A DNA stretch of 23,844 bases from Oscillochloris sp. ZM17-4 (GTDB taxonomy: Bacteria; Chloroflexota; Chloroflexia; Chloroflexales; Chloroflexaceae), in assembly GCF_019599295.1 (NCBI RefSeq), contig NZ_JAIEWN010000016.1, positions 59,839 through 83,682 of the forward strand, written 5' to 3'. Below the pieces are notes generated by a model, which was not told the DNA's origin, made no database searches, and saw only the letters and a list, made by a program, of their open reading frames with translations. A program made the translations under genes and the position numbers. Of this stretch, positions 2 through 23,218 are shown piece by piece (the first letter of the stretch is position 1; the number at the start of each line of letters is the position of its first letter).

Positions 2-2470
2 CCACTGCATATCGTCGCGCTCAGCGGCCCCCTTGCGGGCCGTACATTTCCGCTTGGCGACGTACCTCTATCCCTGGGCCGGACGCCCGAGAACACGATT
101 GTCATCGCGAGCCCGCTGGCCTCGCGCCGCCACGCCGAGCTGCGCCCCGAGGGCGGCGGCTATGTTGTGTATGACCTGGGCAGCTCGAACGGCACCTCGG
201 TGAACGGCCAGCGCGTGCAGTCCCACCGGCTCATGCCCGGCGATGTGATCATGATCGGCGACGAGTCATTTCGCTTTAACGCCCCGGCGGTCGATCAGAC
301 CCTGCTGGCCGCGCCGGCGCCCACGCAGCTGGTCGGGGGCGCGCAGCCGCCGGCCCAGCCGCCCCTGCCGCCCGTCGCGGGGCCGGGCTTCGGCCTGCCG
401 CCCCTCGCAGCATCTCGCCCGCCGCGATCTGGCTCGCGCCTGCCGATCTTCATCGCTCTGGGTGTGCTGATGGCCTGCGTCGTGGTCGCCGGCCTCGGCG
501 GCGGCGTCTTCCTGCTCACCCGCTCCGGCGGGGGCGGGACGACGACCTCGGCCACGCGGGAGCCCGTCGCCACATCGGCCGCCGGCGCGGCCACGCCCGG
601 CCCGGCGCCCACCCGCGCCGCCGCCGGCCAGGACGCCGAGTGGACGGTGCTGGTCTACCTCGACGGCGACAATAACCTGGAGTCCGACGCGCTGACCGAC
701 TTCGCCGAGATGGCCCAGGTCGGGTCGAGCGACCAGATCAAGATCGTCGTCCAGCTCGACCGGGTCTCCTCGCGCGAGTCGTGGGATGACACGACGGCGG
801 GCGACTGGGACGGCACGAAGCGCTTTCTGGTCGAGAAGGGCATGCGGCCCACCGCGGCCAGCGCGCTGGAGGATCTGGGCGAGCAGAATATGGGCGACCC
901 GGATGTGCTGGCCGACTTTGTCAGCTGGGGGATCGACAGCTACCCGGCCCGGCGCTACGCCCTGATCATCTGGGACCACGGGGCCTCGTGGCTGGGGATC
1001 GCCAGCGACGACACCTCGGAGGACCAGCTGAACCTGCCGGAGCTGGGCGCGGCCCTGGAGACGGCCCGCCAGAGCACGCCCTACGGCACCCTCGACCTGA
1101 TCGGCTTCGACGCCTGCCTGATGGCCCAGCTCGACGTGCTGCTGGCCGTCGAGCCCTACGCCCAGGTGGCGGTGGCCTCGGCCGAGCTTGAGCCGAACCA
1201 GGGCTGGGCCTGGGACACGTGGCTGGCCGCCCTGGCGGATGACCCCGGTCAGGACGCCCTGGCGATCGCGCCGAAGATCGTCGAGAGCTACATCGACTCC
1301 TACCGCTTCGCCGACGCCGATGACGTGACGCTCTCGGCCTTCGACCTGGCCAGGCTGGCCCCGATCACGCAGCAGCTCGACCGGCTCTCGCAGGCGATGC
1401 TCGCCGACATGGGCCGCTCGTACAACGCGATCGGCCAGGCCCGCTCCTACGTGGATGTCTACGCGCCCTCCTACTCCGAGGAGTTCAACGCGGTGGACCT
1501 GGGCCAGTTCGCCCAGCTGCTGCCCGCGCAGGGCGCGACGGGCGAGGTGGCGGCGGCGGCGGCCGACCTGGGCGACGCCCTGGGGCAGGCCCGCATCGCC
1601 AATGGGGCCGGCAGCTACCACGCCAGCTCCAGCGGCCTCTCGATCTACTTCCCGCAGCTGGCCGATCTGTATGTGGACGCCTACGAGCGCGGGTCGCCGC
1701 TGCCCCGCGCCACCCGGTGGGCCGACTTCCTCAAGGGCTTCCACAGCGCCGGCGACACGGCGGTGACGACGCCGACGATCAGCGGGCTCCAGATCGACAG
1801 CACCCTGGTCAGCACCAACGCACCGGTCACGCTGAGCGGCGCGCTCAGCGGCAGCGACATCGCCTACGTCTTCTCATTCATCGGCATCCCCAACGCCAGC
1901 CGCGACACGGTGGACCTGATCTATGTGGACTACATCCTGCCGCCGGGGGCCGCCCCGGGCGACGACTCGCCGGTCTGGCCCGACGGGCAGTTTAACCTGA
2001 GCCTGACCTGGGACGCGACGAGCTGGTACCTGAGCAATGGACAGAGCCAGATCGAGGCGCTGCTGGGGCCGGTGAAGTACGGCAGCAACTTCTACGGCGT
2101 CGAGGGCGTATACACCTCGCAGGCCACCGGCGAGCAGATCGACGCCGGCCTGATCTTCAACGTGCAGGGCGACGCGGGCGACCTGGTGCGGATCTGGGGC
2201 TTCCCCAAGAACAAGCAGGACTCACAGCCCTACGAGCTGAAGGCGGCCCCCGGCGACACCTTCACCGCCTACACGCGCAGCTACACCGACACCGGCGGCA
2301 GCCTGGACCCGGCGCGGGTGCAGGGGCAGACGATCACCTTCGGCGACACGCCGCTGAGCGCCAGCTACGGCCCGACCCTGAGCGGCGACTATGTGATGGG
2401 CTTCCTGGTGCGCGACATCGCCGGGAACTTTAGCTACGACTATGTCGACGTGACGGTAGATAACCCATAG
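2..2470 (+). CDS. FHA domain / single-pass TM / extracytoplasmic clostripain-like (peptidase C11, clan CD) protein. 5'-partial: the ORF is open to the window edge
   Basis: The frame containing the listed 167..2470 ORF stays open back to nt 2. The upstream translation 'PLHIVALSGPLAGRTFPLGDVPLSLGRTPENTIVIASPLASRRHAELRPEGGGYVVYDLGSSNGTSVNGQRV' is a canonical FHA domain. A hydrophobic helix 'IFIALGVLMACVVVAGLGGGVFLL' lies at about nt 440-520. The C11-like motifs follow: 'VLVYLDGDNNLE', 'RYALIIWDHGASW' (catalytic His) and 'LDLIGFDACLMAQ' (catalytic Cys), then a Ser/Thr/Gly-rich beta-sandwich tail. GC3 is high, as in the other confident genes. Confidence 0.8.
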   Translation, partial: PLHIVALSGPLAGRTFPLGDVPLSLGRTPENTIVIASPLASRRHAELRPEGGGYVVYDLGSSNGTSVNGQRVQSHRLMPGDVIMIGDESFRFNAPAVDQTLLAAPAPTQLVGGAQPPAQPPLPPVAGPGFGLPPLAASRPPRSGSRLPIFIALGVLMACVVVAGLGGGVFLLTRSGGGGTTTSATREPVATSAAGAATPGPAPTRAAAGQDAEWTVLVYLDGDNNLESDALTDFAEMAQVGSSDQIKIVVQLDRVSSRESWDDTTAGDWDGTKRFLVEKGMRPTAASALEDLGEQNMGDPDVLADFVSWGIDSYPARRYALIIWDHGASWLGIASDDTSEDQLNLPELGAALETARQSTPYGTLDLIGFDACLMAQLDVLLAVEPYAQVAVASAELEPNQGWAWDTWLAALADDPGQDALAIAPKIVESYIDSYRFADADDVTLSAFDLARLAPITQQLDRLSQAMLADMGRSYNAIGQARSYVDVYAPSYSEEFNAVDLGQFAQLLPAQGATGEVAAAAADLGDALGQARIANGAGSYHASSSGLSIYFPQLADLYVDAYERGSPLPRATRWADFLKGFHSAGDTAVTTPTISGLQIDSTLVSTNAPVTLSGALSGSDIAYVFSFIGIPNASRDTVDLIYVDYILPPGAAPGDDSPVWPDGQFNLSLTWDATSWYLSNGQSQIEALLGPVKYGSNFYGVEGVYTSQATGEQIDAGLIFNVQGDAGDLVRIWGFPKNKQDSQPYELKAAPGDTFTAYTRSYTDTGGSLDPARVQGQTITFGDTPLSASYGPTLSGDYVMGFLVRDIAGNFSYDYVDVTVDNP

Positions 2471-2471
2471 T

Positions 2472-2512
2472 ACAGGGGACAGGGGACAGGGGACAGGGGA
2501 CAGGGGACAGGG
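2472..2512 (+). repeat. (ACAGGGG)x5.9 heptamer tandem array. G-tracts are spaced for a G-quadruplex. A degenerate inverted partner (CCTGTNCC units) lies at 2558-2587
   Basis: Read directly: 'acaggggacaggggacaggggacaggggacaggggacaggg' begins 2 nt after the TAG stop at 2468-2470. 'cctgttccctgt...tgtgtcctgtcccc' occurs 45-75 nt downstream, just before the RBS 'ggagg' of the next gene. Confidence 0.9.
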
Positions 2513-2606
2513 TGATGTTACAGACTGGTATCTCATATCGCTCACGTATGCGCTCCGCCTGTTCCCTGTACGCTGTGTCCTGTCCCCTTGTCTTACTGGA
2601 GGAACG

Positions 2607-3863
2607 ATGACCTTTCGCGATATGCTGGCGACCGCACTAGAGAACCTCGGCCGGCGCAAGGTGCGCACCGTGCTCACATCCACCGGCGTGATCGTCGGCA
2701 TCCTGACGATCGTGACCATGGTCTCGCTGGGGGTGGGCGTACAGAGCGAGATCCAGGCCCAGTTCTCGGCGCTCGGCCTAGAGAACCTGTTCGTGCGGCC
2801 GGGCGAGCAGCGCAGCCAGGACTTCTTCACCCGCTACGCGGAGCCGCAGCGCGAGCACCCGATCACCCCGGAGGTGATCGCGGAGTGGGGGCGGCTGCCG
2901 GGCGTGGTCAGCGTGACGCCGGTGATCGACCTGTCGGCGGTGGCCAGCTCGCTGGAGCTGCCGGGCGGCGACCTTTCGGCGGTGTCGGTCGTCGGGCCGC
3001 GGGTCTTCGCGCCGAACCCCTTCCAGCGTGAGCTAACGGCGGTGGCGGGCACGATCACCCTGGCGGCCGAGCGGCGCGGCGAGATGGTGCTTGGCCAGGG
3101 GGCGCTGCCGAGCGGCGTGCGGCCGGAGGATGTGGTCGGCAAGCAGCTCAACATCGTCCTGCGCAGCCCGCGCGGCGAGACCGAGCGCTTCCCGCTGACG
3201 GTGGTGGGCGTGAGCAGCGGCGAGGACTCGGAGGCGCAGGCGACGGCCCTGGACATGGCCGCGATGAAGTCCTGGTGGTTCAACACGCCGGACTACCTGG
3301 ACGCGCAGGGCTACGACTCGGCGGTGGTGCGGGCGAAGGACGTGAGCATCGCCACGCAGCTGCTCGCCACCTTCCGCGATGCGGGCTTCCGGGTGCAGTC
3401 GCTGGAGCTGATCCTCGACGCGGCGAACCGGGTGTTCGCGCTGATCAACGTCATGCTCTCATCTATCGGCGGGCTGGCCCTGTTCGTGGCCAGCCTGGGG
3501 ATCGTCAACACCATGATCATGGCGATCTACGAGCGCACGCGCGAGATCGGCACCCTGAAGGCGATCGGAGCCTCGCGCGGCGACATCCGCAACATGTTCA
3601 TGATCGAGGCCGGGCTGATCGGCGCCCTGGGCGGGGTGGTCGGCATCATTGGCGGCTGGCTGCTCGGCATCCTGCTGAACCAGGTGATCGCCTGGTACAT
3701 CGCGCAGGAGAGCCTGCCGATCCAGGCGACCTTCTTTGTGACGCCGTGGTGGCTGGCGCTCGCGGCGCTGGGCTTCGCCGGCCTGGTGGGGGTGGTCGCC
3801 GGGCTCTACCCGGCGGCGCGGGCCGCCCGGCTCGACCCGCTGGTGGCGCTGCGCTATGAGTAG
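2607..3863 (+). CDS. ABC transporter permease, FtsX/MacB family: one N-terminal TM, a large periplasmic domain and a C-terminal FtsX 3-TM bundle
   Basis: RBS 'ggagg' lies 8 nt upstream of the ATG. TM1 is 'VLTSTGVIVGILTIVTMVSLGVGV'. The C-terminal region 'LGIVNTMIMAIYERTREIGTLKAIGASRGDIRNMFMIEAGLIGALGG...LDPLVALRYE' is typical of the FtsX domain. No ABC ATPase gene is adjacent. Confidence 0.85.
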   Translation: MTFRDMLATALENLGRRKVRTVLTSTGVIVGILTIVTMVSLGVGVQSEIQAQFSALGLENLFVRPGEQRSQDFFTRYAEPQREHPITPEVIAEWGRLPGVVSVTPVIDLSAVASSLELPGGDLSAVSVVGPRVFAPNPFQRELTAVAGTITLAAERRGEMVLGQGALPSGVRPEDVVGKQLNIVLRSPRGETERFPLTVVGVSSGEDSEAQATALDMAAMKSWWFNTPDYLDAQGYDSAVVRAKDVSIATQLLATFRDAGFRVQSLELILDAANRVFALINVMLSSIGGLALFVASLGIVNTMIMAIYERTREIGTLKAIGASRGDIRNMFMIEAGLIGALGGVVGIIGGWLLGILLNQVIAWYIAQESLPIQATFFVTPWWLALAALGFAGLVGVVAGLYPAARAARLDPLVALRYE

Positions 3864-3883: not shown

Positions 3884-5134
3884 ATGGCATACCCGATCAG
3901 CATGTTGATGGCTCGCCTGCAGCAGACCGGCCAGGATGTGGTCAGCGGGTGTTACACGCCGGCCACGCTGGCGCAGCTGTCGCAGAGCCTTTCGCGGATC
4001 GTCTTCACCGGCGACACGAGCATCATCCTGGCGATCGGCAACGACCCGCAGCGGGCATGGGCCGACCTTGCCATGCGCGGCTTGAGCGTCGCCGCGCGGC
4101 GGGTTGATCTATCGCCCGCGACTGGGCCGCAGCTCGGCTTCGCCCTGATCGGCGTCGGCCAGGTCAGCGGGTTTGTCCTGGCGGCCGCCCCGATCGAGCC
4201 GCTGGACCGCGACGAGAGCCTGTGGCTCTACGACGCGCTCTGGAGCTGCGACCCGGCAGCCCTGCGCGCCGCCACCGATCTGCTGCGCGAGACGTCCGAG
4301 GCCGATATCTCTGGCGCCATCGATGGTCTCACCGCCCCCCCGCCGGAGTCGCTGCTGCGCCTGAGCGGCGACCTGCTCGACTTCGCCGCGCGCCAGCACA
4401 GCACCCTCGGCGTGACCAACCGATCGCTGGCCGAGCGCATGCGCAACCAGGAGGACCAGACGCGCATGATCGTCCACGATATGCGCGCGCCGCTCCACAC
4501 CCTGCTGATCAGCATCAAGGCCCTCCAGCGCCAGCGCTTCGACCCCGAGGGCCGCAACGAGCTGCTTGAGGTGGCCCGCGACAGCGCCGGCTATCTGCTC
4601 AACCTGACCGAGACGGTGCTGGACTCGGCGCGCCTGGAGACGAGCGGCTGGGCGGTGAAGCGCCAGCCGGTGCGTATCCTGAACCTGGTGCAGTCGGTGT
4701 GCGACCCGCTTGAGCTCGCGGCGCGACCGGACCAGGCCCAGCTGCACCACAGCGTGGCCGACGACATGCCGGTGATCTGGGTCGACCGCGCCCTGATGGA
4801 GCGGGTGCTGACGAACCTGCTCACGAACGCGATCAAGTACACCCCGGCCAGCGGCCAGATCAGCGTGTCGGCCCAGCTCATCCACGATGGCCACGCAGTG
4901 GAGATCAGCGTGCTCGACACTGGACACGGCATCTCGCAGGAGGCGCAGGCCCATATCTTCGAGCGCTTCTACCAGGCGAACGACAGCGACCGTCGCCGGG
5001 GCACAGGGCTCGGCCTGTACTTCTGCCGGCTCGCGGTGGAGGCCCACGGCGGCAGCATCGACGTGCGGAGCGCCGTCGGCGAGGGCAGCACCTTCATTAT
5101 CGTCCTGCCGGTCGATGCGCCTAAGGAGGGCTGA
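3884..5134 (+). CDS. Soluble sensor histidine kinase (HisKA + HATPase_c) with an uncharacterised ~200-aa N-terminal domain. An alternative GTG start at 3863 overlaps the permease stop
   Basis: H-box 'HDMRAPLHTLLISIKAL'. N/G boxes 'LTNLLTNAIKYT', 'DTGHGIS', 'GTGLGLYFCRLAVEAHGG'. RBS 'ggaaggag' precedes the ATG at 3884. The upstream gene's TAG at 3861-3863 overlaps a GTG in the same frame (TAGTG), suggesting translational coupling. No response regulator or TM segment is present. Confidence 0.85.
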   Translation: MAYPISMLMARLQQTGQDVVSGCYTPATLAQLSQSLSRIVFTGDTSIILAIGNDPQRAWADLAMRGLSVAARRVDLSPATGPQLGFALIGVGQVSGFVLAAAPIEPLDRDESLWLYDALWSCDPAALRAATDLLRETSEADISGAIDGLTAPPPESLLRLSGDLLDFAARQHSTLGVTNRSLAERMRNQEDQTRMIVHDMRAPLHTLLISIKALQRQRFDPEGRNELLEVARDSAGYLLNLTETVLDSARLETSGWAVKRQPVRILNLVQSVCDPLELAARPDQAQLHHSVADDMPVIWVDRALMERVLTNLLTNAIKYTPASGQISVSAQLIHDGHAVEISVLDTGHGISQEAQAHIFERFYQANDSDRRRGTGLGLYFCRLAVEAHGGSIDVRSAVGEGSTFIIVLPVDAPKEG

Positions 5135-5262
5135 CGGCAATATCGCTGAAGTCACGCTGTCACCCTGAGTCGCCCGGTCGTAAACGGCCGGGCTGAGTCT
5201 ACGAAGGCCGCTGAAGAGGCCTCGGACAGGGCTTCAGCACGCATATGGGATGGCCGCCCCCA

Positions 5263-5335
5263 GTAGGGCCGAAGCATTCGCACCGGATGAATCTGCGTGT
5301 CGCACATGCATAGGGTGCGAATGCTTCGGCCCTAC
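5263..5335. repeat. 22-bp perfect inverted repeat with a 29-nt loop between convergent genes. Member of a GTAGGG...CCCTAC hairpin family
   Basis: 'gtagggccgaagcattcgcacc' at 5263-5284 is the exact reverse complement of 'ggtgcgaatgcttcggccctac' at 5314-5335. The loop contains the AATCTGC heptamer. Confidence 0.85.
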
Positions 5336-5477
5336 AGTGCCCCTGGCGGGTATGGGTCGCCCCGGCGGGCCGACACGGGGCGGAGGGTGGTCGATCCGGT
5401 TTCGGTTAACCTCATGCACATGGGACTTCAGCCCCGGGCGAGCGTCGCCGCACCGCGTGACTTCTGCGGTATTGCCA

Positions 5478-8012
5478 TCAGCCCTTCTTGATCACCTCGC
5501 GGGAGCGCCCGCCCTCGGCCGGGCCGACCACCCCCTGCTGCTCCAGCAGGTCGATCAGCTGGGCGGCCTTGCTGTAGCCGATGCGCAGCCGGCGCTGGAG
5601 CAGCGAGGCCGAGGCCCGCTGGTGCTGCTCCACCAGGGCCTTCGCCTGCGGCAGCAGCTCGTCCTGCTCGTCCACGCTGAGGAACTCCGCCGGCGGCCGG
5701 TAGGCCTCGTCGGGGGTTGGGGGCTGGGGGGTGGGGGTTGGGGTCGCGCCCGCCTCGGTCGGCCGTGGGCCAGGGAGGGCGCCGCTGAAGGGCGGGCCAT
5801 TCATCCCCAGCGAGCCGCCGGCCTTCGCCTTCACCTCCTCCTCGGTGTCCGGGGGCAGCGCCTTGCGCCAGAAGTCGACGATCTTCTCGACCTCGCGGTC
5901 GGAGACGTAGGTGCCCTGGACGCGCACCAGCTTGGCGGAGTCGGCGGCCATGTAGAGCATATCGCCGCGGCCAAGCAGCTGGTCGGCGCCGGGGCCATCG
6001 AGGATGACCCGGCTGTCGACCTGGGAGGTGACGGCGAAGGCGATCCGCGAGGGGAAGTTGGCCTTGATCAGGCCGGTGATCACATCCACCGAGGGGCGCT
6101 GGGTGGCGATGATAAGGTGGATGCCGGTGGCGCGGGCCATCTGGGCCAGGCGGCAGATGTAGGTCTCCGTCTCATCGGGGGCCATCATCATCAGGTCGGC
6201 CAGCTCGTCGATGATGATCAGGATGTAGGGCATCGGCTCCAGGTCGGCGCGCTTGCGGGCCAGCAGCTTATAGCTCTCCAGGTTGCGGCAGCCGTGGCGG
6301 GCGAAGATCTTATAGCGCCGCTCCATCTCGCGGGTGGCCCACTTCAGGGTCGGCACCACCCGCTCCAGCTCCGTCACCACTGGCGAGAGCAGGTGCGGCA
6401 CCCGGTTGTAGACGATCATCTCGACCATCTTCGGGTCGACCAGGATGAGCTTCAGGTCGTCGGGGCTATGCTTGAGCAGCAGGCCGCAGAGGAAGGCGTT
6501 GATCGCCACCGACTTGCCGGAGCCGGTCGAGCCGGCCACCAGCAGGTGCGGCATCTTAGTCATGTCGGCGATGATCGGCGTGCCGCTGACGTCCTTGCCG
6601 AGGGGCAGCTTGAGCTTGCCGCGGCTGGCCTCAAACTCCTCGCTGTCGATCACCTCGCGCATGCTGACCATGGCGATCGCCGAGTTGGGGATCTCGATGC
6701 CGACGGCGGCCTTGCCGGGGATGGGCGCCTCGATGCGGATGGAGGGCGCGGCCAGGGCCAGGGCTAGGTCGCGCTCCAGCGAGGTGATCTTGCTGACCTT
6801 GACGCCCACGGCGGGCTGCAGCTCGAACTGCGTCACCGCCGGGCCGGGGTTCACATTCACCACCTGGGCCTCGACCTTAAAGCTGGCCAGGGTCTCCTCG
6901 ATCAGGCGCGAGCGGGCGCGGATATCCTCGTCGCTGATGCCCGCCTCGGCGCTGTAGGAGTCGAGCATCTCCATCACGGGCAGCGGCCAGGCTCGGTGTA
7001 CCGCCGGCACATCGAAGCCGTCCAGCGCCTCCTGCACCGTCTCGACCACCGGCTCGGGGGTGGGGCGGGGCAGGACGCTGCGCTGGGCCGGCTCTGGGGC
7101 CGGGGCGGCGGGCGGGCCGCCCAGGGTCGGGGCTGGCGCGCCCTTGCCGGCGGCGGGCGCGGCGGGCGCGGCCGGCGGCGGCGCCGCGCCCCTGCCGGCG
7201 GCGGCGGGGTCGCCGCCGGGGCGCTGGAAGAGGCTGGCCTTTGTGGTGCGGGCGGCGATCGGAGTCTGGGTCAGGTCATCATCCGCGCCGAGGGGCGGCG
7301 GCTGGAAGGGCAGGTCGTCGTCGGCCAGCGCGGGTCGGCGGGGCGCGGCGGGGCGGCGCGGCGCGCCCCAGAGCAGCGCCCAGAAGCGGGCGGCGCGCAC
7401 GCTCATGCCGATGATCAGCTCGCGCAGGGTGATGTTAAACGTCAGCATGACCCCGGCCAGGCCGAGCACGATCACCACTAGCACCGCCGCGGGCCGGCCG
7501 ATGCTGCGGTCCAGCCCCTCGACCACCCCGGAGCCGATCAGGCCGCCGCCCTGGTCGATCCGGTCGGCCAGATTGATCTCGTGGAAGGGGAACTCCAGCA
7601 GGCCGAGGATGGCCGCCAGGACGAGCACGGTGCCCAGGGCGTTGGCCCCAGACAGCTGCGCGTCCTGCATGCGCTCCTGGATGAGGATGGCCACGCCGAG
7701 CAGGCCCAGCGTCACCGGCACCACCAGCGCCCCGCTGCCGAAGGCCCGCCGGACCACCTCCAGGTAGAGCCCTCCGACGCCGCCAGCGACCCCGGTGAAG
7801 AAGAAGACCAGCGTCACCAGGGCGACGGTGATCAGCGCGAGGGCGAACAGCTCGCGCTGGTGCTCGGGGCGCAGCGAGATCGCGAAGGCCGGCTTCTCCT
7901 TGCGCGCGCCCCGGCGCGCCGGCGCCCTGCCCTTGCCCGCCGGCCGCCGGCCGCCGCTGCCGCCCGCCTTATTCCCGCCCCGTGAGGCCATAGGGTGCCC
8001 TCTCCTGCGCAT
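5478..8012 (-). CDS. ftsK: DNA translocase FtsK: N-terminal 4-TM domain, Pro/Ala-rich linker, RecA-like motor and C-terminal gamma (winged-helix) domain
   Basis: Walker A 'GSTGSGKSVAINA', Walker B 'LIIIDELADLMM', 'IHLIIATQRPSVDVITG'. Gamma domain 'LLPQAKALVEQHQRASASLLQRRLRIGYSKAAQLIDLLEQQGVVGP'. An alternative start M lies 7 codons in, with a better-spaced 'aggag'. Confidence 0.95.
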   Translation of the reverse strand: MRRRGHPMASRGGNKAGGSGGRRPAGKGRAPARRGARKEKPAFAISLRPEHQRELFALALITVALVTLVFFFTGVAGGVGGLYLEVVRRAFGSGALVVPVTLGLLGVAILIQERMQDAQLSGANALGTVLVLAAILGLLEFPFHEINLADRIDQGGGLIGSGVVEGLDRSIGRPAAVLVVIVLGLAGVMLTFNITLRELIIGMSVRAARFWALLWGAPRRPAAPRRPALADDDLPFQPPPLGADDDLTQTPIAARTTKASLFQRPGGDPAAAGRGAAPPPAAPAAPAAGKGAPAPTLGGPPAAPAPEPAQRSVLPRPTPEPVVETVQEALDGFDVPAVHRAWPLPVMEMLDSYSAEAGISDEDIRARSRLIEETLASFKVEAQVVNVNPGPAVTQFELQPAVGVKVSKITSLERDLALALAAPSIRIEAPIPGKAAVGIEIPNSAIAMVSMREVIDSEEFEASRGKLKLPLGKDVSGTPIIADMTKMPHLLVAGSTGSGKSVAINAFLCGLLLKHSPDDLKLILVDPKMVEMIVYNRVPHLLSPVVTELERVVPTLKWATREMERRYKIFARHGCRNLESYKLLARKRADLEPMPYILIIIDELADLMMMAPDETETYICRLAQMARATGIHLIIATQRPSVDVITGLIKANFPSRIAFAVTSQVDSRVILDGPGADQLLGRGDMLYMAADSAKLVRVQGTYVSDREVEKIVDFWRKALPPDTEEEVKAKAGGSLGMNGPPFSGALPGPRPTEAGATPTPTPQPPTPDEAYRPPAEFLSVDEQDELLPQAKALVEQHQRASASLLQRRLRIGYSKAAQLIDLLEQQGVVGPAEGGRSREVIKKG

Positions 8013-8075
8013 TCTAGTGCCGTTAGCCGGCAGTATAGCACATCTGCGCGGGGGGTGTCTCCCCGCAGGGCGGCC

Positions 8076-8147
8076 GGGGGTGGCGAAGCCACCCCCGAAG
8101 GTTTTTAGTGGGATTTTGGCGGCGAAGCCGCCAAAATCCCACTAAAA
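8076..8147. repeat. Two adjacent perfect palindromes with GAA loops and a GGC-GAA-GCC centre: a 9-bp stem (8076-8096) and a 21-bp stem (8103-8147)
   Basis: 'gggggtggc gaa gccaccccc' and 'ttttagtgggattttggcggc gaa gccgccaaaatcccactaaaa' are each an exact reverse complement around a 3-nt centre. Confidence 0.9.
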
Positions 8148-8207
8148 GCAGGGTCTGGGGCTGCGCCTATGCGTATCACGTTAGGCCCCGGGCTCCCCGG
8201 AATTCCC

Positions 8208-8260
8208 TGTTGTTTTGGCCAACATGGCCAGCTTCGCTGGCCATGTTGGCCAAAACAACA
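8208..8260. repeat. 25-bp-stem perfect palindrome with a TTC centre
   Basis: 'tgttgttttggccaacatggccagc ttc gctggccatgttggccaaaacaaca'. The core 'atggccagc-ttc-gctggccat' is identical (in reverse complement) to the core of the palindrome at 22376-22420. Confidence 0.9.
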
Positions 8261-8296
8261 CCAGTTTTTAGGGCCGCAGCCCCAGGACTCTGTAGC

Positions 8297-8305
8297 TGCT
8301 ATAAT
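8297..8305 (+). promoter_or_regulatory. Extended -10 element (TGcTATAAT) for yggX. An 11-bp direct repeat 'gtatccagcag' x2 lies in the leader (8321-8346)
   Basis: 'tgctataat' sits 56 nt upstream of the ATG at 8361, with no convincing -35. A direct repeat with a 4-nt gap occurs between the -10 and the RBS. Confidence 0.45.
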
Positions 8306-8360
8306 CATAGGACAGCTATGGTATCCAGCAGCGATAGTATCCAGCAGAAGGTGAACCGCT

Positions 8361-8669
8361 ATGCCGCGTATGGTCAACTGTGTGAAGATAGGCCGCGAGC
8401 TGCCGGGGCTGGATCGCCCGCCCTTCAGCGGGCCGCTCGGCCAGCGCATCTTTGAGAGCGTCTCCCAGCAGGCCTGGGCGCTCTGGCCGGCCCAGTCGAC
8501 CCTGATCATCAACCACTACGGGCTGAGCCTGGGCGACCCGAACGCCCAGAAGATCCTGCTCCAGCAGATGGAGGAGTTCTTCTTCGGCGAGAAGGCCCGC
8601 ATGCCCGAGGGCTGGACGCCTCAGCCGGCGGCCCCGGCGGCCAAGGGCGCCGGGCCGAGGCGGAAATGA
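8361..8669 (+). CDS. yggX: Fe(2+)-trafficking / oxidative-damage-protection protein of the YggX family
   Basis: 'MPRMVNCVKIGRELPGLDRPPFSGPLGQRIFESVSQQAWALWPAQSTLIINHYGLSLGDPNAQKILLQQMEEFFFGEK' aligns along its whole length with E. coli YggX ('...[58 protein letters not shown]'). RBS 'gaaggtga'. Confidence 0.85.
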   Translation: MPRMVNCVKIGRELPGLDRPPFSGPLGQRIFESVSQQAWALWPAQSTLIINHYGLSLGDPNAQKILLQQMEEFFFGEKARMPEGWTPQPAAPAAKGAGPRRK

Positions 8670-8670
8670 T

Positions 8671-8704
8671 GGTGTAGGGATGCAGCGTGCTGCGTCCCTA
8701 CACC
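8671..8704. terminator. Bidirectional hairpin (16-bp stem with one G.U pair) shared by convergent yggX and the ATP-grasp gene. It overlaps the ATP-grasp stop codon
   Basis: 'ggtgtagggatgcagc gt gctgcgtccctacacc'. The core 'gtagggaYgcagcgtgctgcgtccctac' recurs at 19318-19353. Confidence 0.6.
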
Positions 8705-9936
8705 ATTGGGATGTTCGGCATGATCTCGAAGGTGAGGCATGCGTGGGCCGCGCGCAGGGCCGCCTCGGCCTCGGCGGGCGCGGCGGCGCGGGCGAAGATG
8801 AAGCCCAGGTAGCTGTCGCCCTCGGGCAGGGGCACCAGGGGGTAGTGCAGGGGCGCGCTGATCTCGACGCGCTCCACCCCCGGCACCGCCCGCGCATCCT
8901 CTAGGCCGCGCACCGCCCGCAGCACCCCGGCCTGCGGGATGGGGATCATCATCACCCCGCCTGCGCCGCCTGTGCGGCCCAGCGACTCCGCCGGCAGCCC
9001 GGCGGCCTGGCTCAGGATCAGCTCCTCCAGCGAGGCGTCGGTGCCGAACTGGAGCGTCTGCGAGCAGAGCCCGCCGATCGTGCGCCCGGCCAGCTCGACC
9101 ATCCACGGCCCGCGATCGTTCACCCGCAGCTCGGCGTGGAGCGGCCCGCGCTCCAGCCCCACCGCCGCCGCCGCCCGCGCCGCCACCGCCCCGATCTGGG
9201 CCTGCGCCTCGGCCGGCAGCCGCGAGGGCGTCACGTAGAGCGTCTCCTCGAAGAACGGCCCGTCCAGCGGGTCGGGCTTGTCGAAGAGGGCCAGCACCCG
9301 CAGCTCGCCGCCGTCGATCACGCCCTCCAGGGCCACCTCAAAGCCGGGGATGAAGTCCTCGGCCAGGAAGGGCTTCGGCCCCGGCGTGGGGTCGACGCGC
9401 TCAAGCAGGCGCGAGATGCGCCGCGCGGCGGCCACGAACTCGGCCGGGCCGTCGGCGCGGATCACCCCCCGGCTGCCGTTGAGCCGCAGCGGCTTCAGCA
9501 CGCAGGGGTAGCTGACCTGCGCGGCCAGCAGCCCCAGATCCTCGCCGGTGGAGCAGAGCCGGAAGGCCGGCGAGGGCACGCCGGCCGCCGCGAAGAGCCG
9601 CCGCATCAGGTGCTTGTCGCGGGCCGCCTCAGCCGCCTCGGGCCGGTTGTGGGGCAGGCCGAGGGCCGCGCTGGCCCGCGCGGCCACCATGGCCCCGCTG
9701 TCGTCCACGGCGATCACGGCGGCCAGGGGCGCCTCGGCGTGGATGGCCAGGATATCGGCCAGGGCGCGGCCCTCGTCATTGAAGTCGATGCCGACCCGGC
9801 CGCCCAGCCGGCCGGCCATGGCCGCCGGCGCATCCTCGGCCACCAGGGCGCGCACGCCCAGCCGCTCGGCCGCGCGCATGAATGCCTCCAGCCGGTAGGA
9901 CGACGGGGTGGTCAGGAGCAGGATCTGCTGGCGCAT
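8698..9936 (-). CDS. ATP-grasp domain protein, L-amino-acid-ligase / carboxylate-amine-ligase-like
   Basis: Start chosen at 'MRQQILLLTTPSS' (ATG 9936-9934); the listed longer ORF begins in repeat DNA. 'EAARDKHLMRRLFAAAGVPSP', 'YPCVLKPLRLNGSRGVIRA' and 'FLAEDFIPGFEVALEG' match the ATP-grasp fold of BacD/YwfE-type ligases. Confidence 0.7.
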   Translation of the reverse strand: MRQQILLLTTPSSYRLEAFMRAAERLGVRALVAEDAPAAMAGRLGGRVGIDFNDEGRALADILAIHAEAPLAAVIAVDDSGAMVAARASAALGLPHNRPEAAEAARDKHLMRRLFAAAGVPSPAFRLCSTGEDLGLLAAQVSYPCVLKPLRLNGSRGVIRADGPAEFVAAARRISRLLERVDPTPGPKPFLAEDFIPGFEVALEGVIDGGELRVLALFDKPDPLDGPFFEETLYVTPSRLPAEAQAQIGAVAARAAAAVGLERGPLHAELRVNDRGPWMVELAGRTIGGLCSQTLQFGTDASLEELILSQAAGLPAESLGRTGGAGGVMMIPIPQAGVLRAVRGLEDARAVPGVERVEISAPLHYPLVPLPEGDSYLGFIFARAAAPAEAEAALRAAHACLTFEIMPNIPMV

Positions 9937-10018
9937 AGTTTGGTGCATCTCATACCAACTGGAATTGAGCAATCCGCATACGCGCCGCCGCCAGAGCGCG
10001 TTGAAACGCCATGCACGG

Positions 10019-10050
10019 CAATCTGCAATCCAAAATCTGCAATCTGCAAT
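10019..10050 (+). repeat. (CAATCTG)n heptamer array, 4.5 units with one degenerate. The same heptamer recurs at 20199-20223
   Basis: 'caatctgcaatccaaaatctgcaatctgcaat' lies between two minus-strand genes. Confidence 0.9.
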
Positions 10051-10054
10051 GGTA

Positions 10055-12103
10055 TCAGTCTCGCGTGAGCAGCTTCGACGCGGACTCCAGCGCCGTGTCG
10101 GCGGCGCACACCCGGTTCCGCCCGGTCGCCTTGGCCATATAGAGCGCCCGGTCGGCCGCGCGCAGCAGCGTGTCGCCATCGCCGCCGTGGGCGGGGAAGC
10201 TCGCCACGCCGGCCGAGATCGTGCAGCGCAGCTCGTGGCCGCCGTACTCGACGCACATATCGGCGAAGGCCTGGCGCAGATCGTCGGCGCGCTCCAGTGC
10301 CATGTCGAGGGTGGCGGTGGCCATGATCACCACAAACTCCTCGCCGCCGTAGCGGCAGGCCGTGTCCATCTGGCGGGTGTGACCGTGCAGCAGCGCGCCC
10401 GTGGCCTGGAGCATGAGGTCGCCGGCCCTGTGCCCGTAGGTGTCGTTGAGCTGCTTGAAGTGGTCGATGTCCATCATCATAACACTAAGCGGGGCTTGCT
10501 CGCGCGCGGCGTGGGCCAGCCCCTGCTCGAGGATCTCTTCCATGTAGCGCCGGTTGAACAGGCCGGTGAGCACATCGTGGGTGGCCTGCTCGCGCAGCTG
10601 CGCCTGGAGCTGCTGGATCTCGGCCAGCTGCGCCTGGAGGCTCTGGTTCGCCGCGCGCAGCGCCTCGTCGGCCCGCCTGCGCTCGCTGATGTTGCGGCCG
10701 ACCCCGTTGATCGCAAGCTGGCCGGTCTCCGGGCTGATGTAGTAGTGGGTCACAATCTCCACCCAGACCGCCGAGCCATCTTTGTGCGGCTGCTCAAGCT
10801 CGTTGACGAAGGTGTGCTGGGTCGGGTCGGCCAGAAATGTGGCGATCCGCTGCTGGATCAGCCCATGGATCGCCGCCTGCATATCCGGCGGCAGCCCATG
10901 ATAGACGACTTGGCCCAGCAGCTCCTCCGGCTTGTAGCCCTGGAGCTGCTCGATCGATGGGCTGATATAGGTCAAGCGCAGGCTCTGGGTGTCGATGCTC
11001 CAGATCACATCCTGCATGTTCTCGGCCAGCAGGCGGTAGCGCCGCTCGCTCTGCCGCAGGGCCTCCTCGGCCCGCTTGTGCGCGGTGACATCGTGCAGAA
11101 TGAACAAGTGCCCCACCGGCCTGCCGCGCCGATCATTGATCGTCGAGACGACGAGGTCGTAGGTGCGCTGCCGCGCGCCGACGCCGACCGTCACCTCAGA
11201 CGTGCCCGCTGACGTGCGAGAGTGGCCCCGAAGCAGATCGGCCCAGTCGGGTGGCAGCGCCTCGACCGGCTCGCCGATAGCCTGCGCGGGCATCCCGCAG
11301 GTGACCTTCGCGGCGCTGTTCACGTCGGCGATCTGCCCCTGTGTGTCTAGCACGATCACCAGGTCCTCGATATGATCCATCACCGCACCGCGGGCGATCG
11401 GGACAATGATGAAGATCTGGCCGTGCAGCAGCGCCCAGCCGTAGATCACGCCGGTGCAGGCGAGCAGCATTGGCGTCCAGGCATAGCCGGGCAAGGGCGT
11501 GATGCGTAGCGTGGTGAGGATGTCGGCCAGGAAGGGGATGAGGATGCCCAGGATGAGCAGCAGCATTTCCCGCCGGCGCTGCGCACGGGTCACCAGGGAT
11601 ACGGCGAGGATCGCCAGCGCGCAGATGGTGAGCACGCTCCCGTACCCGTAGTAGACCCAGTACCAGGGGCCTCGGCTGAACACAACATTGCTCAGCGGGC
11701 CCTCGGCGATCAGCCGGGGGCTATGGCGAAACAGCGGGTAGAGCGGCGGGGTCAGGGTCAGCACGACGGTGACGGCAGGGATGATCAGGAGGGCTGCCAG
11801 ACGTTGGCGGGTGATCCATGCGGCGTGGCCGGTGTACTGGATCACCATGGTCAGGATGGCCGGCGCGATGAAGCCGCCGGGGATGTAGATCAGGCGGAGC
11901 AGGAGCACGCGCAGCTCAAGCGGGGCGACGACCAGGCTGAGGGCGAAGATCAGCGAGAACAGGGAAGACAGCCACATGAGCATGCGGAAGGGCCGGCACG
12001 CCGGCAGGCGGCGATAGTAGCCGGCGTAGACGGCGATGGAGGCGAGGAGCACGGCGCTGGCGAGCGGTAGCCAGACGTAGGGCGTATAGAGCATGGCCCA
12101 CAC
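10055..12103 (-). CDS. Membrane sensor diguanylate cyclase: N-terminal ~8-TM domain, tandem PAS domains, coiled coil, GGDEF domain
   Basis: GTG start with 'ggaggtg' RBS. Hydrophobic N-terminal 230 aa. PAS-like 'VIWSIDTQSLRLTYISPSIEQLQGYKPEELLG'. GGDEF core 'DVLTGLFNRRYM', 'MMDIDHFKQLNDTYGHRAGD', 'RYGGEEFVVIM', 'LYMAKATGRNRV'. Confidence 0.85.
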   Translation of the reverse strand: MWAMLYTPYVWLPLASAVLLASIAVYAGYYRRLPACRPFRMLMWLSSLFSLIFALSLVVAPLELRVLLLRLIYIPGGFIAPAILTMVIQYTGHAAWITRQRLAALLIIPAVTVVLTLTPPLYPLFRHSPRLIAEGPLSNVVFSRGPWYWVYYGYGSVLTICALAILAVSLVTRAQRRREMLLLILGILIPFLADILTTLRITPLPGYAWTPMLLACTGVIYGWALLHGQIFIIVPIARGAVMDHIEDLVIVLDTQGQIADVNSAAKVTCGMPAQAIGEPVEALPPDWADLLRGHSRTSAGTSEVTVGVGARQRTYDLVVSTINDRRGRPVGHLFILHDVTAHKRAEEALRQSERRYRLLAENMQDVIWSIDTQSLRLTYISPSIEQLQGYKPEELLGQVVYHGLPPDMQAAIHGLIQQRIATFLADPTQHTFVNELEQPHKDGSAVWVEIVTHYYISPETGQLAINGVGRNISERRRADEALRAANQSLQAQLAEIQQLQAQLREQATHDVLTGLFNRRYMEEILEQGLAHAAREQAPLSVMMMDIDHFKQLNDTYGHRAGDLMLQATGALLHGHTRQMDTACRYGGEEFVVIMATATLDMALERADDLRQAFADMCVEYGGHELRCTISAGVASFPAHGGDGDTLLRAADRALYMAKATGRNRVCAADTALESASKLLTRD

Positions 12104-12384
12104 CTCCGGCAGAGGACACTGTCATAGTGATGTCCTTAGGGCGATGGTTATTTTACTGCTGTTTTAAAAGATGAAGAGTGAGGGAAGATGGAATGAGATT
12201 ATACACCCTGTGTCAAGCGACGCATCGGGCTTTTGCAGGAAGGCGACACAAATAGCGTGCATAGCCGCAGTGGCTGGCACGAGTTTCTGAGTACGGCGAA
12301 GCCGCCTCGGTGGGTGACGAGGTTACAAGACTTATGCCAGCGCTACAGGTACTCAGGAGCGAACTGCTCCTCGGTGGGCTCCGC

Positions 12385-13749
12385 TCAGCAGTACCAGGGC
12401 TCGCTCAGGTAGGGGATGGGCGGGCGGGGCAGCAGGTGCGCCAGGCTAGGCCGCGCCCCCGCGCCGATCTGGGAGTCCACCAGATCCCACAGCTTCTCAA
12501 AGAATTGCGCCCGTGTCTCGCCGCGCGGCCCGCTGCCCTGGGCCAGCCGCAGCGCGGCCCGCTGGAGCGTGTCCATCGCCGGATCGGGGTGGCGCCAGGG
12601 GTAGACCAGCCCGGCCGGGTCGAACGGCCCGACCAGATCCCTGACCTCGTCGAGGTGGAGCAGCCAGGAGCCGGACGGGATGAGCAGGCGGATGGCGTAC
12701 TGCACCGGCGAGACGCTCTCGACCAGGCCGAGCTCAGTGATCGCGCGCAGGAAGTCGGCATAGACCTGGCGGCTCGTCCAGGGCGTGAAGGCCACAAAGG
12801 TCGCGTTCAGGCCGACCCCGGCCTCGCGCAGCAGCCCGGCGGCGCGGGCCACATCATCGCGGGTGTGGCGCTTGTCCAGCCGCTCAAGGATGCCCTCGTC
12901 CAGCGCCTCGACCGCGCTCGTCACCAGGGCGCAGCCGGTGTCGCGCAGCTCGGGCAGCAGCTCGGCGTGGCGCAGCAGGTGCTCGACCTTGATCGTCACA
13001 TCGTAGGTGATGCCGGGGTGCTCGGCGTGCAGGGCGCGCACGATCTTCATTGCGTGGCCGGGCCCGTTGAGGAAGTCCGGGTCGCCGAAGGTGATATGGG
13101 CCGCCCCGGCGGCCACCTGGCGGCGCACGTCCTCAAGCACCACATCCCTCGGCACGGTGCGGAAGCGCCCGCCGTAGACGGGGACGATCGGGCAGTGGCG
13201 GCAGGTGTGCTTACAGCCGCGGCTAGCCTCGGTGTAGCCGGCGGCCCGCCGGCCCTCGGCGGTGATCAGGGCGGCGTAGGCCAGCGGGCCGGGCAGGCCG
13301 GCGCGGTCGGGGGGGATGAACGACAGTAGGGGCGTAACAGCGCGCCTGCTCTCATCTGCTGAGGATTCATCTGCCGCTGTTGCGCCCCTACCCTTGTATA
13401 TATCCACCAGGGCGGCCTCAAACTCCCCGCCGACGCAGGCGTCGGCGCCGAGCGCGCGCAGATGATCGGCGTTGAGCGGGGCGTAGAGGCCGTAGCAGAC
13501 GATGGTGGCCTGCGGGGCGAGGGCGCGCAGCTCGGGCAGCAGCTCGGCGGCCAGGCGGGTGGCCGTGTGCATCGGCACATACAGACCGATCAGCGCCGCC
13601 CGCGCCGCCGCCGCCCGGTCGAGCGGCTGGAGCGAGGTGTCGATAGCGAGCACCTCGGCCCCGGCGCGGCGCAGCCATGCCGCCGGCGAGGCCAGCCCGA
13701 AGGGCTGGTGCCCGAGCTCGTAGGTTGAGATCAGCAGCGCGAGAGGCAT
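12385..13749 (-). CDS. B12-binding-domain radical SAM enzyme (class B)
   Basis: N-terminal Rossmann-like B12 domain 'MPLALLISTYELGHQPFGL...IVCYGLYAPLN'. Radical-SAM cluster motif 'SRGCKHTCRHCP' (CxxxCxxC). 'ITFGDPDFL'. The start codon abuts the heptamer array, with no SD. Confidence 0.8.
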   Translation of the reverse strand: MPLALLISTYELGHQPFGLASPAAWLRRAGAEVLAIDTSLQPLDRAAAARAALIGLYVPMHTATRLAAELLPELRALAPQATIVCYGLYAPLNADHLRALGADACVGGEFEAALVDIYKGRGATAADESSADESRRAVTPLLSFIPPDRAGLPGPLAYAALITAEGRRAAGYTEASRGCKHTCRHCPIVPVYGGRFRTVPRDVVLEDVRRQVAAGAAHITFGDPDFLNGPGHAMKIVRALHAEHPGITYDVTIKVEHLLRHAELLPELRDTGCALVTSAVEALDEGILERLDKRHTRDDVARAAGLLREAGVGLNATFVAFTPWTSRQVYADFLRAITELGLVESVSPVQYAIRLLIPSGSWLLHLDEVRDLVGPFDPAGLVYPWRHPDPAMDTLQRAALRLAQGSGPRGETRAQFFEKLWDLVDSQIGAGARPSLAHLLPRPPIPYLSEPWYC

Positions 13750-13751
13750 AA

Positions 13752-13905
13752 TGAATGTTGAATGTTGAATGCTGAATGTTGAATGTTGAGTGGGTGGGGG
13801 TTTCGAAAGCTGGAGCTAGTATAACACGCCGCATAGCCTACAAAGCGCTCCATCTGCCCGGCGCCCTTGGCATTCAACATTCATCATTCATCATTCATCA
13901 TTACC
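13752..13905. repeat. Inverted heptamer arrays: (TGAATGT)5 at 13752-13789 and the complementary (CATTCAN)5 at 13871-13905, separated by about 80 nt
   Basis: Read directly. The right array supplies the TAA stop (13901-13903) of the MVP-like gene. The left array abuts the ATG of the radical-SAM gene. Confidence 0.9.
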
Positions 13906-15289: not shown

Positions 15290-15312
15290 CGCGGTGCTCC
15301 TGTGTCTTGTGT

Positions 15313-15360
15313 AAGATAGTGCTATACTGACACTAATTAGTGTCAGTATAGCACTATCTT
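15313..15360. promoter_or_regulatory. 48-bp perfect, spacerless, AT-rich palindrome in the promoter/leader of the MVP-like gene. Candidate operator for a dimeric regulator
   Basis: 'aagatagtgctatactgacactaa' at 15313-15336 is the exact reverse complement of 'ttagtgtcagtatagcactatctt' at 15337-15360. It is about 67% AT in a 70%-GC genome. It lies 24 nt upstream of the MVP start and contains TATACT/AGTATA and TTGACA hexamers. Confidence 0.6.
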
Positions 15361-15416
15361 GACAAAACGCAAGCACACATCCCGCTGCTCGCCTGGGCGA
15401 GCACCGTGGCTCGCCC

Positions 15417-16005: not shown

Positions 16006-16010
16006 CGGCG

Positions 16011-16487: not shown

Positions 16488-16541
16488 CGCAGAGCGTAGC
16501 GCGTAGAGCGGCAAACATCCTGTGCTCTGCGCTCTGCGCTC
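16487..16541. repeat. Inverted heptamer-type arrays (AGAGCGT-like x3 and GCTCTGC x2) forming a 10-bp perfect inverted repeat 'gcgcagagcg'/'cgctctgcgc'
   Basis: Read directly, immediately after the TAG of the O-antigen-ligase fragment. Confidence 0.8.
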
Positions 16542-16601
16542 ACGTGATACAATGTCCCTGTATCAACCCATGCGCCCAGGGGGCGCCGGAGGCCCAGGAT
16601 C

Positions 16602-20624: not shown

Positions 20625-23218
<2,594 letters not shown>

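Follow-up and report, generated by a model that had tools for sequence, protein, structure and literature searches.

Repetitive extragenic palindromic (REP) sequences and bacterial interspersed mosaic elements (BIMEs), with the REPIN doublets, are extragenic, multi-copy hairpin mosaics with conserved linkers that are found singly or grouped, have loops of 2–4 nt closed by GC or GGC/GCC, are restricted to lineages and turn over fast. The described REP superfamilies carry GTAG or CGTC tags on stems of 5–13 bp, some of them bulged or unpaired, and GTAG-tagged REPs are known in Chloroflexi (PMC3733652). Bacterial miniature inverted-repeat transposable elements (MITEs; Correia, Nezha and those derived from IS200/IS605 insertion sequences) are non-coding, about 150–260 bp long and bounded by imperfect terminal repeats of about 30 bp, and they are dispersed in unrelated intergenic sites, including promoter regions, with decayed or truncated copies among them. 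Replication template switching makes inverted repeats perfect, introduces compensatory changes of several bases, lengthens stems and inverts their loops (PMC8794818, PMC5941160). Here, we describe a cluster of long perfect palindromes between ftsK and yggX in a 23,844-nt stretch of DNA from Oscillochloris sp. ZM17-4 (the window, W, to which coordinates refer unless a locus label is given). We consider it probable that positions ~8075–8289 hold one truncated or decayed copy of a mosaic, multi-copy DNA repeat of intergenic sites that is specific to the lineage and resembles REP/BIMEs or MITEs, and whose hairpin arms evolve in concert by template switching.

A preliminary description of this DNA had reported three exact palindromes with 3-nt centres between ftsK and yggX. 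All three are present and the stems of 21 and 25 bp were confirmed, while the first stem, given as 9 bp, measures 10 bp. Their length is, as had been stated, far beyond chance: no stem exceeded 13 bp in 30 shuffles of the window (70% GC), about 1e-6 stems of 21 bp are expected per 24 kb from the base composition, and the DNA folding z-scores of the palindromes ranged from -5.5 to -12.5, with none of 200 shuffles folding equally well. The GGC-GAA-GCC centre held to be common to all occurs in the first two only; the 25-bp palindrome is centred on AGC-TTC-GCT and a fourth palindrome, at 22376, on AGC-GAA-GCT, so that the common denominator is GC-GAA-GC on either strand. The 25-bp palindrome and the one at 22376 share a core of 21 nt (9+3+9) rather than the 19 nt first given, and on the + strand the loop of this core is inverted between them (TTC at 8233–8235, GAA at 22397–22399). 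Four further long perfect palindromes in the window had been overlooked (Table 1).

Rather than separate items around a common centre, the three clustered palindromes are modules, here termed A, B and H3, of one composite element. The earlier proposal that they belong to a repeated family was borne out, since both the 21-nt core and the element recur in the sister genome ZM16-3 and in nine high-GC metagenome contigs; the palindromes are hence not unique to these loci. In ZM16-3 (GCA_004138175.2; locus L162), the composite lies at L162:20125–20384, between a methylase start and the stop of a CBS gene, with the modules in the same order as in the window: CCGGTGGGGGTGT, a 12-bp GGC-TTC-GCC hairpin, a 17-bp GGCGGC-GAA-GCCGCC hairpin, the linkers AAGCAGGTCTGGGGCCGCGCCCCATACGCATCAACGTAA and GGAATTTCTT, a 24-bp hairpin GTTGTTTTGGCCAAAATGGCCAGC-TTC and then GGTTTTAGGGCGGCAGCCCTAACGTTGATGTGCATGGGGCCGCGCCCCAG. 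Window positions 8104–8282 are 81.7% identical to this copy over ~180 bp. A scan of metagenome contigs (labelled L081 to L161) with the 21-mer core matched 81 stretches, among which nine contigs of 64–68% GC carried a perfect 23–24-bp hairpin around the core; eight of these nine share the flanking modules (L081 in part), and their outer flanks are unrelated. An nhmmer profile of the element gave full matches only in the window (8155–8289, E=1.5e-34), L162 and the high-GC metagenome contigs, and partial matches in the clade relative L165, in L097 and L109 and at window positions 22365–22416. No match to the profile was found in 80 other Chloroflexota loci (1.27 Mb), nor any match to the 21-mer core in viral contigs. 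Judged from these searches, the family is confined to a few Oscillochloris-like bacteria. The literature yielded no paper that deals with these palindromes in Oscillochloris or the ZM strains.

Full copies measure ~230–260 bp, of which the core part makes up ~170 bp. The layout runs from A and B through the linker AAGCAGGT to a left terminal repeat with hairpin H1, then H2, the linker GGAATTTCTT, H3, the linker GGTTTTTA, H4 and a right terminal repeat with H1'. Within the core part, the linkers read AGAATTTCTT between H2 and H3 and GCGGGTTTTTA between H3 and H4, and the consensus hairpins are GGGGGCC-GCA-GGCCCCC for H2 and TAGGGC-GGCA-GCCCTA for H4. Modules A and B join via AAGCAGGT at either end; in L134 they stand on the right, inverted. 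The arms of the terminal inverted repeat are ~30 bp long and imperfect (GGGGCYGCGCCCCATGCGYATCAAGTTA and TAACGTTGATGCGTATGGGGCYGCGCCCC). In the window copy, H2 is missing, as are ~30 bp of the full copies from H4 to the right repeat (GGCAGCCCTAACGTTGATGCGTATGGGGC). Module A has its ZM16-3 counterpart at L162:20139–20165 (TGTAGGGGAGGC-TTC, with the loop flipped), and module B has counterparts at L162:20173–20209 (17 bp) and L162:3448–3492. By its sequence, the palindrome at 22376 is a solo hairpin of a sister subfamily, H3b, a homologue of which (CTCTAAAAGACTGAGATGGCCAGC-TTC) follows directly after the stop of another gene in L109.

Table 1. Features of the ftsK–yggX spacer and other palindromes of the window.
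Feature	Coordinates	Strand	Description	Basis
ftsK	5478–7991	-	Gene, start re-set against sister genome ZM16-3	Pfam
Promoter-like ftsK site	8032–8061	-	GAGACA-18-TATACT; left limit of the repeat	Promoter scan
Module A (palindrome 1)	8075–8097		Perfect 10-bp G-rich hairpin, CGGGGGTGGC-GAA-GCCACCCCCG, GGC-GAA-GCC tip, then AAGGTTTTT	
Module B (palindrome 2)	8103–8147		Perfect 21-bp hairpin, TTTTAGTGGGATTTTGGCGGC-GAA-..., GGCGGC-GAA-GCCGCC centre	
Linker and left terminal repeat	8148–8183	+	Linker AAGCAGGGT; H1 (CTGGGGC-TGC-GCC), arm TATGCGTATCACGTTA	Alignment A1, nhmmer
H2-region remnant and linker	8184–8207	+	Consensus H2 hairpin deleted; linker GGAATTYCYT	Alignment A1, columns 91–137
Module H3 (palindrome 3)	8208–8260		Perfect 25-bp hairpin (24 bp in the family), TGTTGTTTTGGCCAACATGGCCAGC-TTC-..., core ATGGCCAGC-TTC-GCTGGCCAT	
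Right linker and stump	8261–8289	+	Linker CCAGTTTTTA; fused H4/right-terminal-repeat stump GGGCCGCAGCCCCAGGAC	Alignments
TATAAT box	8300–8305		Right of the cluster	Spotted by eye
yggX	8361–8669	+	Gene	Pfam
Further palindrome	15313–15360		Perfect 24-bp stem	
Further palindrome	16780–16838		Perfect 28-bp stem	
Further palindrome	19317–19354		Perfect 18-bp stem	
Solo hairpin H3b (palindrome 4)	22376–22420		Perfect 21-bp stem, TCTCTGGACGAGATGGCCAGC-GAA-...; TCTCTGGACGAG + ATGGCCAGC-GAA	
Further palindrome	23230–23266		Perfect 17-bp stem	

The evolution of the arms was followed in an alignment of nine copies (A1), in which the 24 pairs of H3 amount to 216 cells. Seventeen pairs were invariant, six were changed on both arms and none was changed on one side only; a single cell, a terminal A·C in L140, was unpaired (99.5% paired), and there were no G·T pairs. 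The six variable pairs comprise three A-T to C-G changes and one each of G-C to A-T, G-C to T-A and A-T to G-C, so that four of them are transversions (A-T to C-G or G-C to T-A) that are impossible via a wobble pair. None of 500 shuffles reached the observed level of covariation. These changes are confined to the outer 15 bp, on which the 21-mer search placed no constraint; the metagenome copies, by contrast, are invariant in the inner 9 bp as an artefact of their retrieval by exact match to the core. Other modules behaved in the same way: module B shows at least five stem differences between the window and ZM16-3, plus one of length, always symmetric, and a symmetric 3-bp indel separates H3b from its homologue in L109. 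The outer terminal repeat, unlike H3, has a long spacer (~150 nt) and is 83% paired across copies, with wobbles and mismatches. One decayed H3, in L097, is perfect over 11 bp only, which indicates that imperfect H3 copies are detectable but rare. A conserved centre with unrelated arms, as first proposed, is only half right: the H3 copies have homologous arms, which are set apart by paired substitutions.

Flips of the asymmetric loops are tied neither to the stems nor to one another. With all copies read in the same orientation of the outer element, the H3 loop is TTC in six copies (W, L162, L094, L116, L134 and L161) and GAA in four (L081, L088, L140 and L151), and identical stems carry opposite loops in W versus L081 and in L094 and L134 versus L151. 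At H2, five copies have the loop GCA, L088 has TGC and L140 has TAC; module A carries GAA in the window as opposed to TTC in ZM16-3. Since L151 has H3 flipped and H2 not, the flips are local. Flipping of this kind disfavours both a loop-reading protein and an RNA function, as neither would tolerate a freely flipping asymmetric loop. The conserved centre had been suggested to be a protein recognition site, and a site of this type, bound by a dimeric DNA-binding protein as an operator or for architectural purposes with the arms merely tolerated, could draw on the ATGGCCAGC-N3-GCTGGCCAT core common to two subfamilies, on GGCGGC-GAA-GCCGCC in another and on the promoter regions in which several copies lie. 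We nevertheless hold it to be very improbable: besides the flipping loop, the symmetry is perfect over 45–53 bp, far longer than any operator, the core invariance among the metagenome copies reflects their retrieval, the clade relative L164 has the variant GGGCCAGC, and the neighbouring genes are unrelated and form no common regulon. A dif/Xer site, an attC site, a retron, a CRISPR array and an operator, considered in view of the ftsK neighbourhood and the symmetry, were ruled out by copy number, length and the lack of associated genes.

With k shorter than arm plus loop, a De Bruijn assembler can give the loop of a perfect palindrome the wrong orientation; for 24-bp arms, any k of at least 28 resolves it. 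Stems that exceed those of all shuffles, in a family present in independent NCBI, JGI, ENA and Logan assemblies, leave chance or assembly error a virtually negligible explanation of the palindromes.

Taken together, the perfect arms, paired transversions, symmetric indels, local loop inversion and decay of the long-spacer repeat match reports of template switching, from which we infer concerted evolution at the DNA level. The match is one of pattern: changes and indels appear in both arms without intermediates, and loops are inverted. In the proposed mechanism, a nascent strand would copy the other arm, within its strand or across the fork, and such a switch would correct one-arm mutations, could extend the arms and would invert the loop; stable mini-hairpin loops may nucleate the fold-back and so render the sequences self-perfecting, while the elements presumably spread as non-autonomous DNA. 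Quasipalindrome correction (Ripley, Lovett; PMC5941160; PMC8794818) leaves hallmarks that are all seen here: arms that are perfect and extended, multi-base changes in both arms, symmetric indels and inverted loops. The published cases are scattered single loci or RNA genes, whereas here the footprints are concentrated in one family with unusually long arms and a fixed loop chemistry. The behaviour itself is thus known, and it is unusually clean and concentrated in this family. An analogy, and no closer a likeness, is offered by the flip/flop inverted terminal repeat hairpins of parvoviruses and adeno-associated virus, whose asymmetric tip likewise occurs in two orientations at similar frequency; those hairpins are the ends of linear replicons, flipped by hairpin transfer, whereas the sequences described here are internal to the chromosome. 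About ten recent copies of one element show all the template-switch footprints, with the imperfect long-spacer repeat as an internal control, so that rates of arm-to-arm conversion as a function of arm length, spacer length and loop chemistry could become measurable in a bacterium.

Several observations weigh against the reading as a mobile DNA repeat with template-switched arms. No target-site duplications flank the copies in W, L162, L088, L094, L134 and L116, the compared copies have no sharp, conserved ends, and no transposase, of the Y1/HUH or any other type, was seen in 82 kb of clade loci (W, L162, L164 and L165, picked without regard to palindromes). The GAA-loop copies of H3 all come from metagenome assemblies, both named genomes having TTC; ZM17-4 and ZM16-3 still differ in the loop of module A. 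Strong purifying selection on structure could also give only paired states in some ten copies. In a strand-asymmetry test for an RNA role (G·T versus A·C in the outer stems), most G·T cells belonged to one inherited column. Finally, the solo hairpins at L164:14109–14153 and L165:10866–10898 have a GGCCAGC-GAA core and the arrangement A-tract, GC stem, T-tract at gene ends, and an RNA-level role is plausible for part of the family because some solo relatives resemble bidirectional terminators.

This last point bears on the alternative that the hairpins act as RNA, that is, as bidirectional terminators, stabilisers of mRNA 3' ends or structured small RNAs, with the stems reflecting selection for RNA pairing. 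For the family as a whole we regard it as fairly unlikely. Like Rho-independent, including bidirectional, terminators, the solo relatives are GC-rich stem-loops at gene ends, some with A- and T-tract flanks: they stand directly after stops at window position 22376, L109:823, L165:10866 and L164:14109, the last between convergent genes with an A-tract and a T-tract on its flanks. Hairpin A together with AAGGTTTTT was flagged as terminator-like on the + strand in the promoter/terminator scan, and TTTTTG or TTTTGG comes after the inner GC stem in several copies of H3. The palindrome after rpoN (19317–19354) is a textbook terminator with a T-run, and its three stem differences from the ZM16-3 orthologue (L162:11367–11406) are all compensated. 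Long perfect hairpins at gene ends are indeed a general habit of this clade.

The cluster itself fits a terminator poorly. Lying between two gene starts, those of ftsK and yggX, it is at no gene 3' end, and it does not qualify as an intrinsic terminator, only hairpin A having a T-run nearby. Three of the seven composites with resolvable context (W, L134 and L088) stand between divergent genes, and the remaining copies, in tandem contexts, occur in both orientations. Whichever strand is read, the T-run of module B and of outer H3 is on the 5' side and the A-run on the 3' side, opposite to a terminator, for which reason module B is not a canonical one, and the stems are 2–3 times the usual length. 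Nor do the sequence changes resemble those of a structured RNA, with no G·U among the 216 H3 cells, double changes that are transversions and loops that flip between GAA and UUC; in addition, GNA or GNNA loops closed by C-G are a DNA-stable motif whose RNA versions are much weaker (PMC13037366). The window had no Rfam match at the gathering threshold, and E-value mode returned only generic hairpins of microRNA precursors at 15–38 bits against thresholds of 70–100. Divergent predicted promoters, both orientations and the missing Rfam match thus speak against the terminator or small-RNA modules suggested earlier for the cluster, and the window copy, set between divergent predicted promoters, presumably has no sequence-specific RNA role and acts at most as a cruciform-prone spacer. 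If the RNA explanation were true, these organisms would use unusually long, wobble-free terminators. For annotation, the family implies that such hairpins are not all terminators or small RNAs.

With regard to mobility, the family shares with REP/BIME mosaics and with MITEs the traits of each given at the outset, save for the tags and stem lengths of REPs. It differs from the former in its perfect stems of 10–25 bp, its flipping C-GNA-G loops and its lack of a tag, no conserved GTAG or CGTC being found in A, B, H3 or H3b across copies (GTAG...CTAC occurs sporadically, at L162:20140–20164 and at window positions 19322–19349 and 5262–5337). It differs from the latter in lacking target-site duplications and sharp ends, in modules that recombine into varied mosaics and in having no known parent insertion sequence. 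Failing the sequence tag of the one and the target duplication of the other, it is neither in full. The MITE-like or cruciform-forming nature proposed in the preliminary description accordingly stands as regards the imperfect terminal inverted repeats of ~30 bp and the unrelated intergenic sites, and falls short as regards the target-site duplications, the check for which at the composite copies was negative. Transposition is not demonstrated, since neither target-site duplications nor sharp conserved ends were found.

Mobilisation as a REP/BIME-type element by a REP-associated tyrosine transposase (RAYT, of the Y1/HUH type), or as a miniature of IS200/IS605, with the hairpins as recognition structures of an enzyme acting on single-stranded DNA, appears quite unlikely. 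The clustered, mosaic extragenic hairpins with conserved linkers do resemble BIMEs, GTAG-tagged REPs exist in Chloroflexi (PMC3733652) and some modules read GTAG...CTAC, a missing target duplication is what a Y1 transposase would leave, and a preference for DNA-stable loops fits a single-stranded DNA substrate. Yet the GAA family has no conserved tag, its perfect stems exceed those of described REPs (PMC3733652), the clade loci examined showed no gene for a Y1 transposase, and flipping leaves the purine loop now on one strand, now on the other, an awkward substrate for an enzyme that is strand-specific. Another proposal, to which we give a similarly low likelihood, is a structure-driven, transposase-free DNA parasite in which a mini-hairpin nucleates fold-back on single-stranded DNA and the palindrome arises, perfects itself, grows outwards and flips its tip by replication template switching alone, or else the substrate of a new hairpin-specific enzyme, resembling HUH nucleases or telomere resolvases, that would bring about the flip/flop; either would explain how one 9-bp core comes with unrelated outer arms.

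The check for target-site duplications had a positive control in the remaining 70 matches to the 21-mer, which belong to a 45-bp perfectly palindromic element, here called group A (CAAAGTATATATATGGCCAGCGAAGCTGGCCATATATATACTTTG, e.g., at L082:230–274), with exact 7-bp duplications at 32 of 36 distinct insertions. Group-A contigs, within L082–L160, have ~45% GC (range ~38–50%) and are poor in open reading frames; as long ones are lacking, they are probably eukaryotic host DNA. The element looks like a very small MITE. It was rejected as a relative of the window family, with which it shares nothing beyond the 21-mer, and a hairpin with a 9-bp stem and a 3-nt loop has just 12 free positions; the shared core is thus probably a coincidence.

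The loops of the family follow a DNA motif. Modules A, B, H3, H3b, H1, H2 (GCA) and H4 (GGCA) all have on one strand a G-N-A or G-N-N-A loop closed by C-G, and the loops seen in the modules are GAA, GCA, GTA and GGCA. C-GNA-G was present in 11 of 12 perfect palindromes with a stem of at least 10 bp and a 3-nt spacer in W, L162, L164 and L165; with stems of at least 7 bp, the count in these four loci was 16 of 27, compared with 15 of 152 in other Chloroflexota (1.3 Mb). GC-GAA-GC hairpins with stems of at least 8 bp numbered 20 in 126 kb of clade sequence versus 1 in 1.27 Mb elsewhere, a clade count inflated by contigs that had been retrieved with the core, without which it is 10 in ~107 kb. 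The DNA mini-hairpins d(GCGNAGC) and d(GCGNNAGC) melt near 80 °C, their RNA counterpart is far weaker, and single-stranded DNA-binding protein binds them poorly (PMC13037366). Loop and closing pairs are identical between the family and these mini-hairpins (Hirao; PMC13037366), which occur at the phage G4 and ssiA priming sites and at promoters for the phage N4 virion RNA polymerase; the shared forms are GC-GAA-GC, GC-GCA-GC and GC-GGCA-GC. The known mini-hairpins are single functional sites with stems of 2–7 bp, whereas here stems of 7–25 bp occur in a dispersed chromosomal repeat. By analogy, the likeness would imply a function or origin in single-stranded DNA, with a priming or promoter role as a candidate at most. 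The near-universal C-GNA-G loop links the biophysics of DNA mini-hairpins to genome evolution.

Concerning the genomic setting, the cluster lies upstream of the ftsK -35 box, and the homology between the window and L162 ends at 8055, the sequence being conserved to the left of the promoter-like ftsK site and not to its right. The composite is upstream of ftsK in ZM17-4 and not in ZM16-3 or L164, and it is upstream of the methylase in ZM16-3 only; as these sites are also rearranged, there is no clean empty site for a presence/absence comparison. The RpoN protein of the window matches its counterpart in Oscillochloris sp. ZM17-4 at 100% identity and the one in Chloroflexales bacterium ZM16-3 at 80%. 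All relatives of YggX are from Chloroflexota, and in L001–L005, the closest species-representative genomes among them, a formyltransferase gene precedes yggX; the ~70-bp spacer between the two genes has no palindromes in L001, the only one of the five that was read.

Both sites with GAA palindromes coincide with rearrangements relative to relatives. The composite is at the left breakpoint of a 9.7-kb block (8056–17787, yggX to the formyltransferase gene) that is placed differently in relatives: in ZM16-3 and L164 ftsK faces rpoN directly, and in L001–L005 the formyltransferase gene faces yggX. The solo hairpin at 22376 is flanked by a pyrK-like gene, whose stop lies 3 nt before it, and by an ~87-aa N6/N4 methylase remnant, which starts 11 nt beyond it. 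It had been placed at a gene-fragment junction, which is roughly so, the actual break being at ~22107, about 270 bp away; there, the gene for a DUF4097 'toastrack' protein (region 20625–22364), which matches its ZM16-3 orthologue to residue 494 (~22107) only, meets the antisense N-terminal methylase stump (22103–22364). As read from the sequence, this junction is a deletion or rearrangement. The idea that the palindromes mark recombination hot spots fits these positions and is not proved by them, cause and effect being inseparable here; for these phototrophic Chloroflexia, the elements serve as markers of intergenic sites prone to rearrangement. Orthology between the 22376 hairpin and the ZM16-3 composite, both of which precede an N6/N4 methylase gene, was rejected, as the methylases are only 31% identical over 106 aa (E=6e-4) and not orthologous.

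Hairpins and repeats are also variable elsewhere around these genes. At the end of rpoN, L164 (11374–11432) and L165 (7641–7686) have unrelated perfect palindromes of 29 and 22 bp. The spacer upstream of ftsK contains a different repeat in each of three genomes; in L164, ~20 tandem copies of a 27-bp unit like GCGAACGGGCGCGGAAAGCACGAAC occupy ~9400–9950 in this spacer and are closed by an inverted copy. In the window, the spacer between the histidine kinase gene and ftsK (5134–5478) matches both arms of a ~180-bp palindromic element at L162:18331–18513, which has a perfect 32-bp centre. Between its arms, the window copy carries ~200 bp of unlike sequence, including the GTAG...CTAC inverted repeat at 5262–5337, which is reminiscent of GTAG-tagged REPs. 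The spacer between the FHA/C11 peptidase gene and an FtsX-like permease gene likewise has three different hairpin contents in three genomes: (ACAGGGG)5 and its inverse in the window (2470–2607), a 21-bp GGCGGC-GAA palindrome and a short one in ZM16-3 (L162:3415–3536) and a GGGGCC-GCA-GGCCCC hairpin at L164:4098–4159. In ZM16-3 and L164, CACCCCC(A)CCGGAGG then supplies the Shine-Dalgarno site in this spacer. The motif also borders start codons elsewhere, at L134:~430 and, as a weaker version, at L162:20125.

Three of the further palindromes of the window lie near other genes. The one at 15313 is spacer-less and AT-rich (AAGATAGTGCTATACTGACACTAA joined directly to TTAGTG...), has TATACT boxes on both strands and a TTGACA-like hexamer, and stands just upstream of a Band7/vault-like gene; it is unrelated to the GAA family and, from these motifs, may be an operator or bidirectional promoter. 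The palindrome at 16780 consists of AGGTAAA-like heptamers around a TCT loop, overlaps the formyltransferase stop and is terminator-like on both strands. The palindrome at 23230 (GTAAGGGCGCAGCAGCC-TAC-...) lies in a divergent spacer, where 11 nt separate its end from the pyrK-like start codon downstream, and resembles AGTAGGGGCGCAGCAACCACAGC-TAC-... at L008:8998–9044, in a more distant Chloroflexaceae genome; the two may represent a GTAG-type REP family with a C-GTA-G loop.

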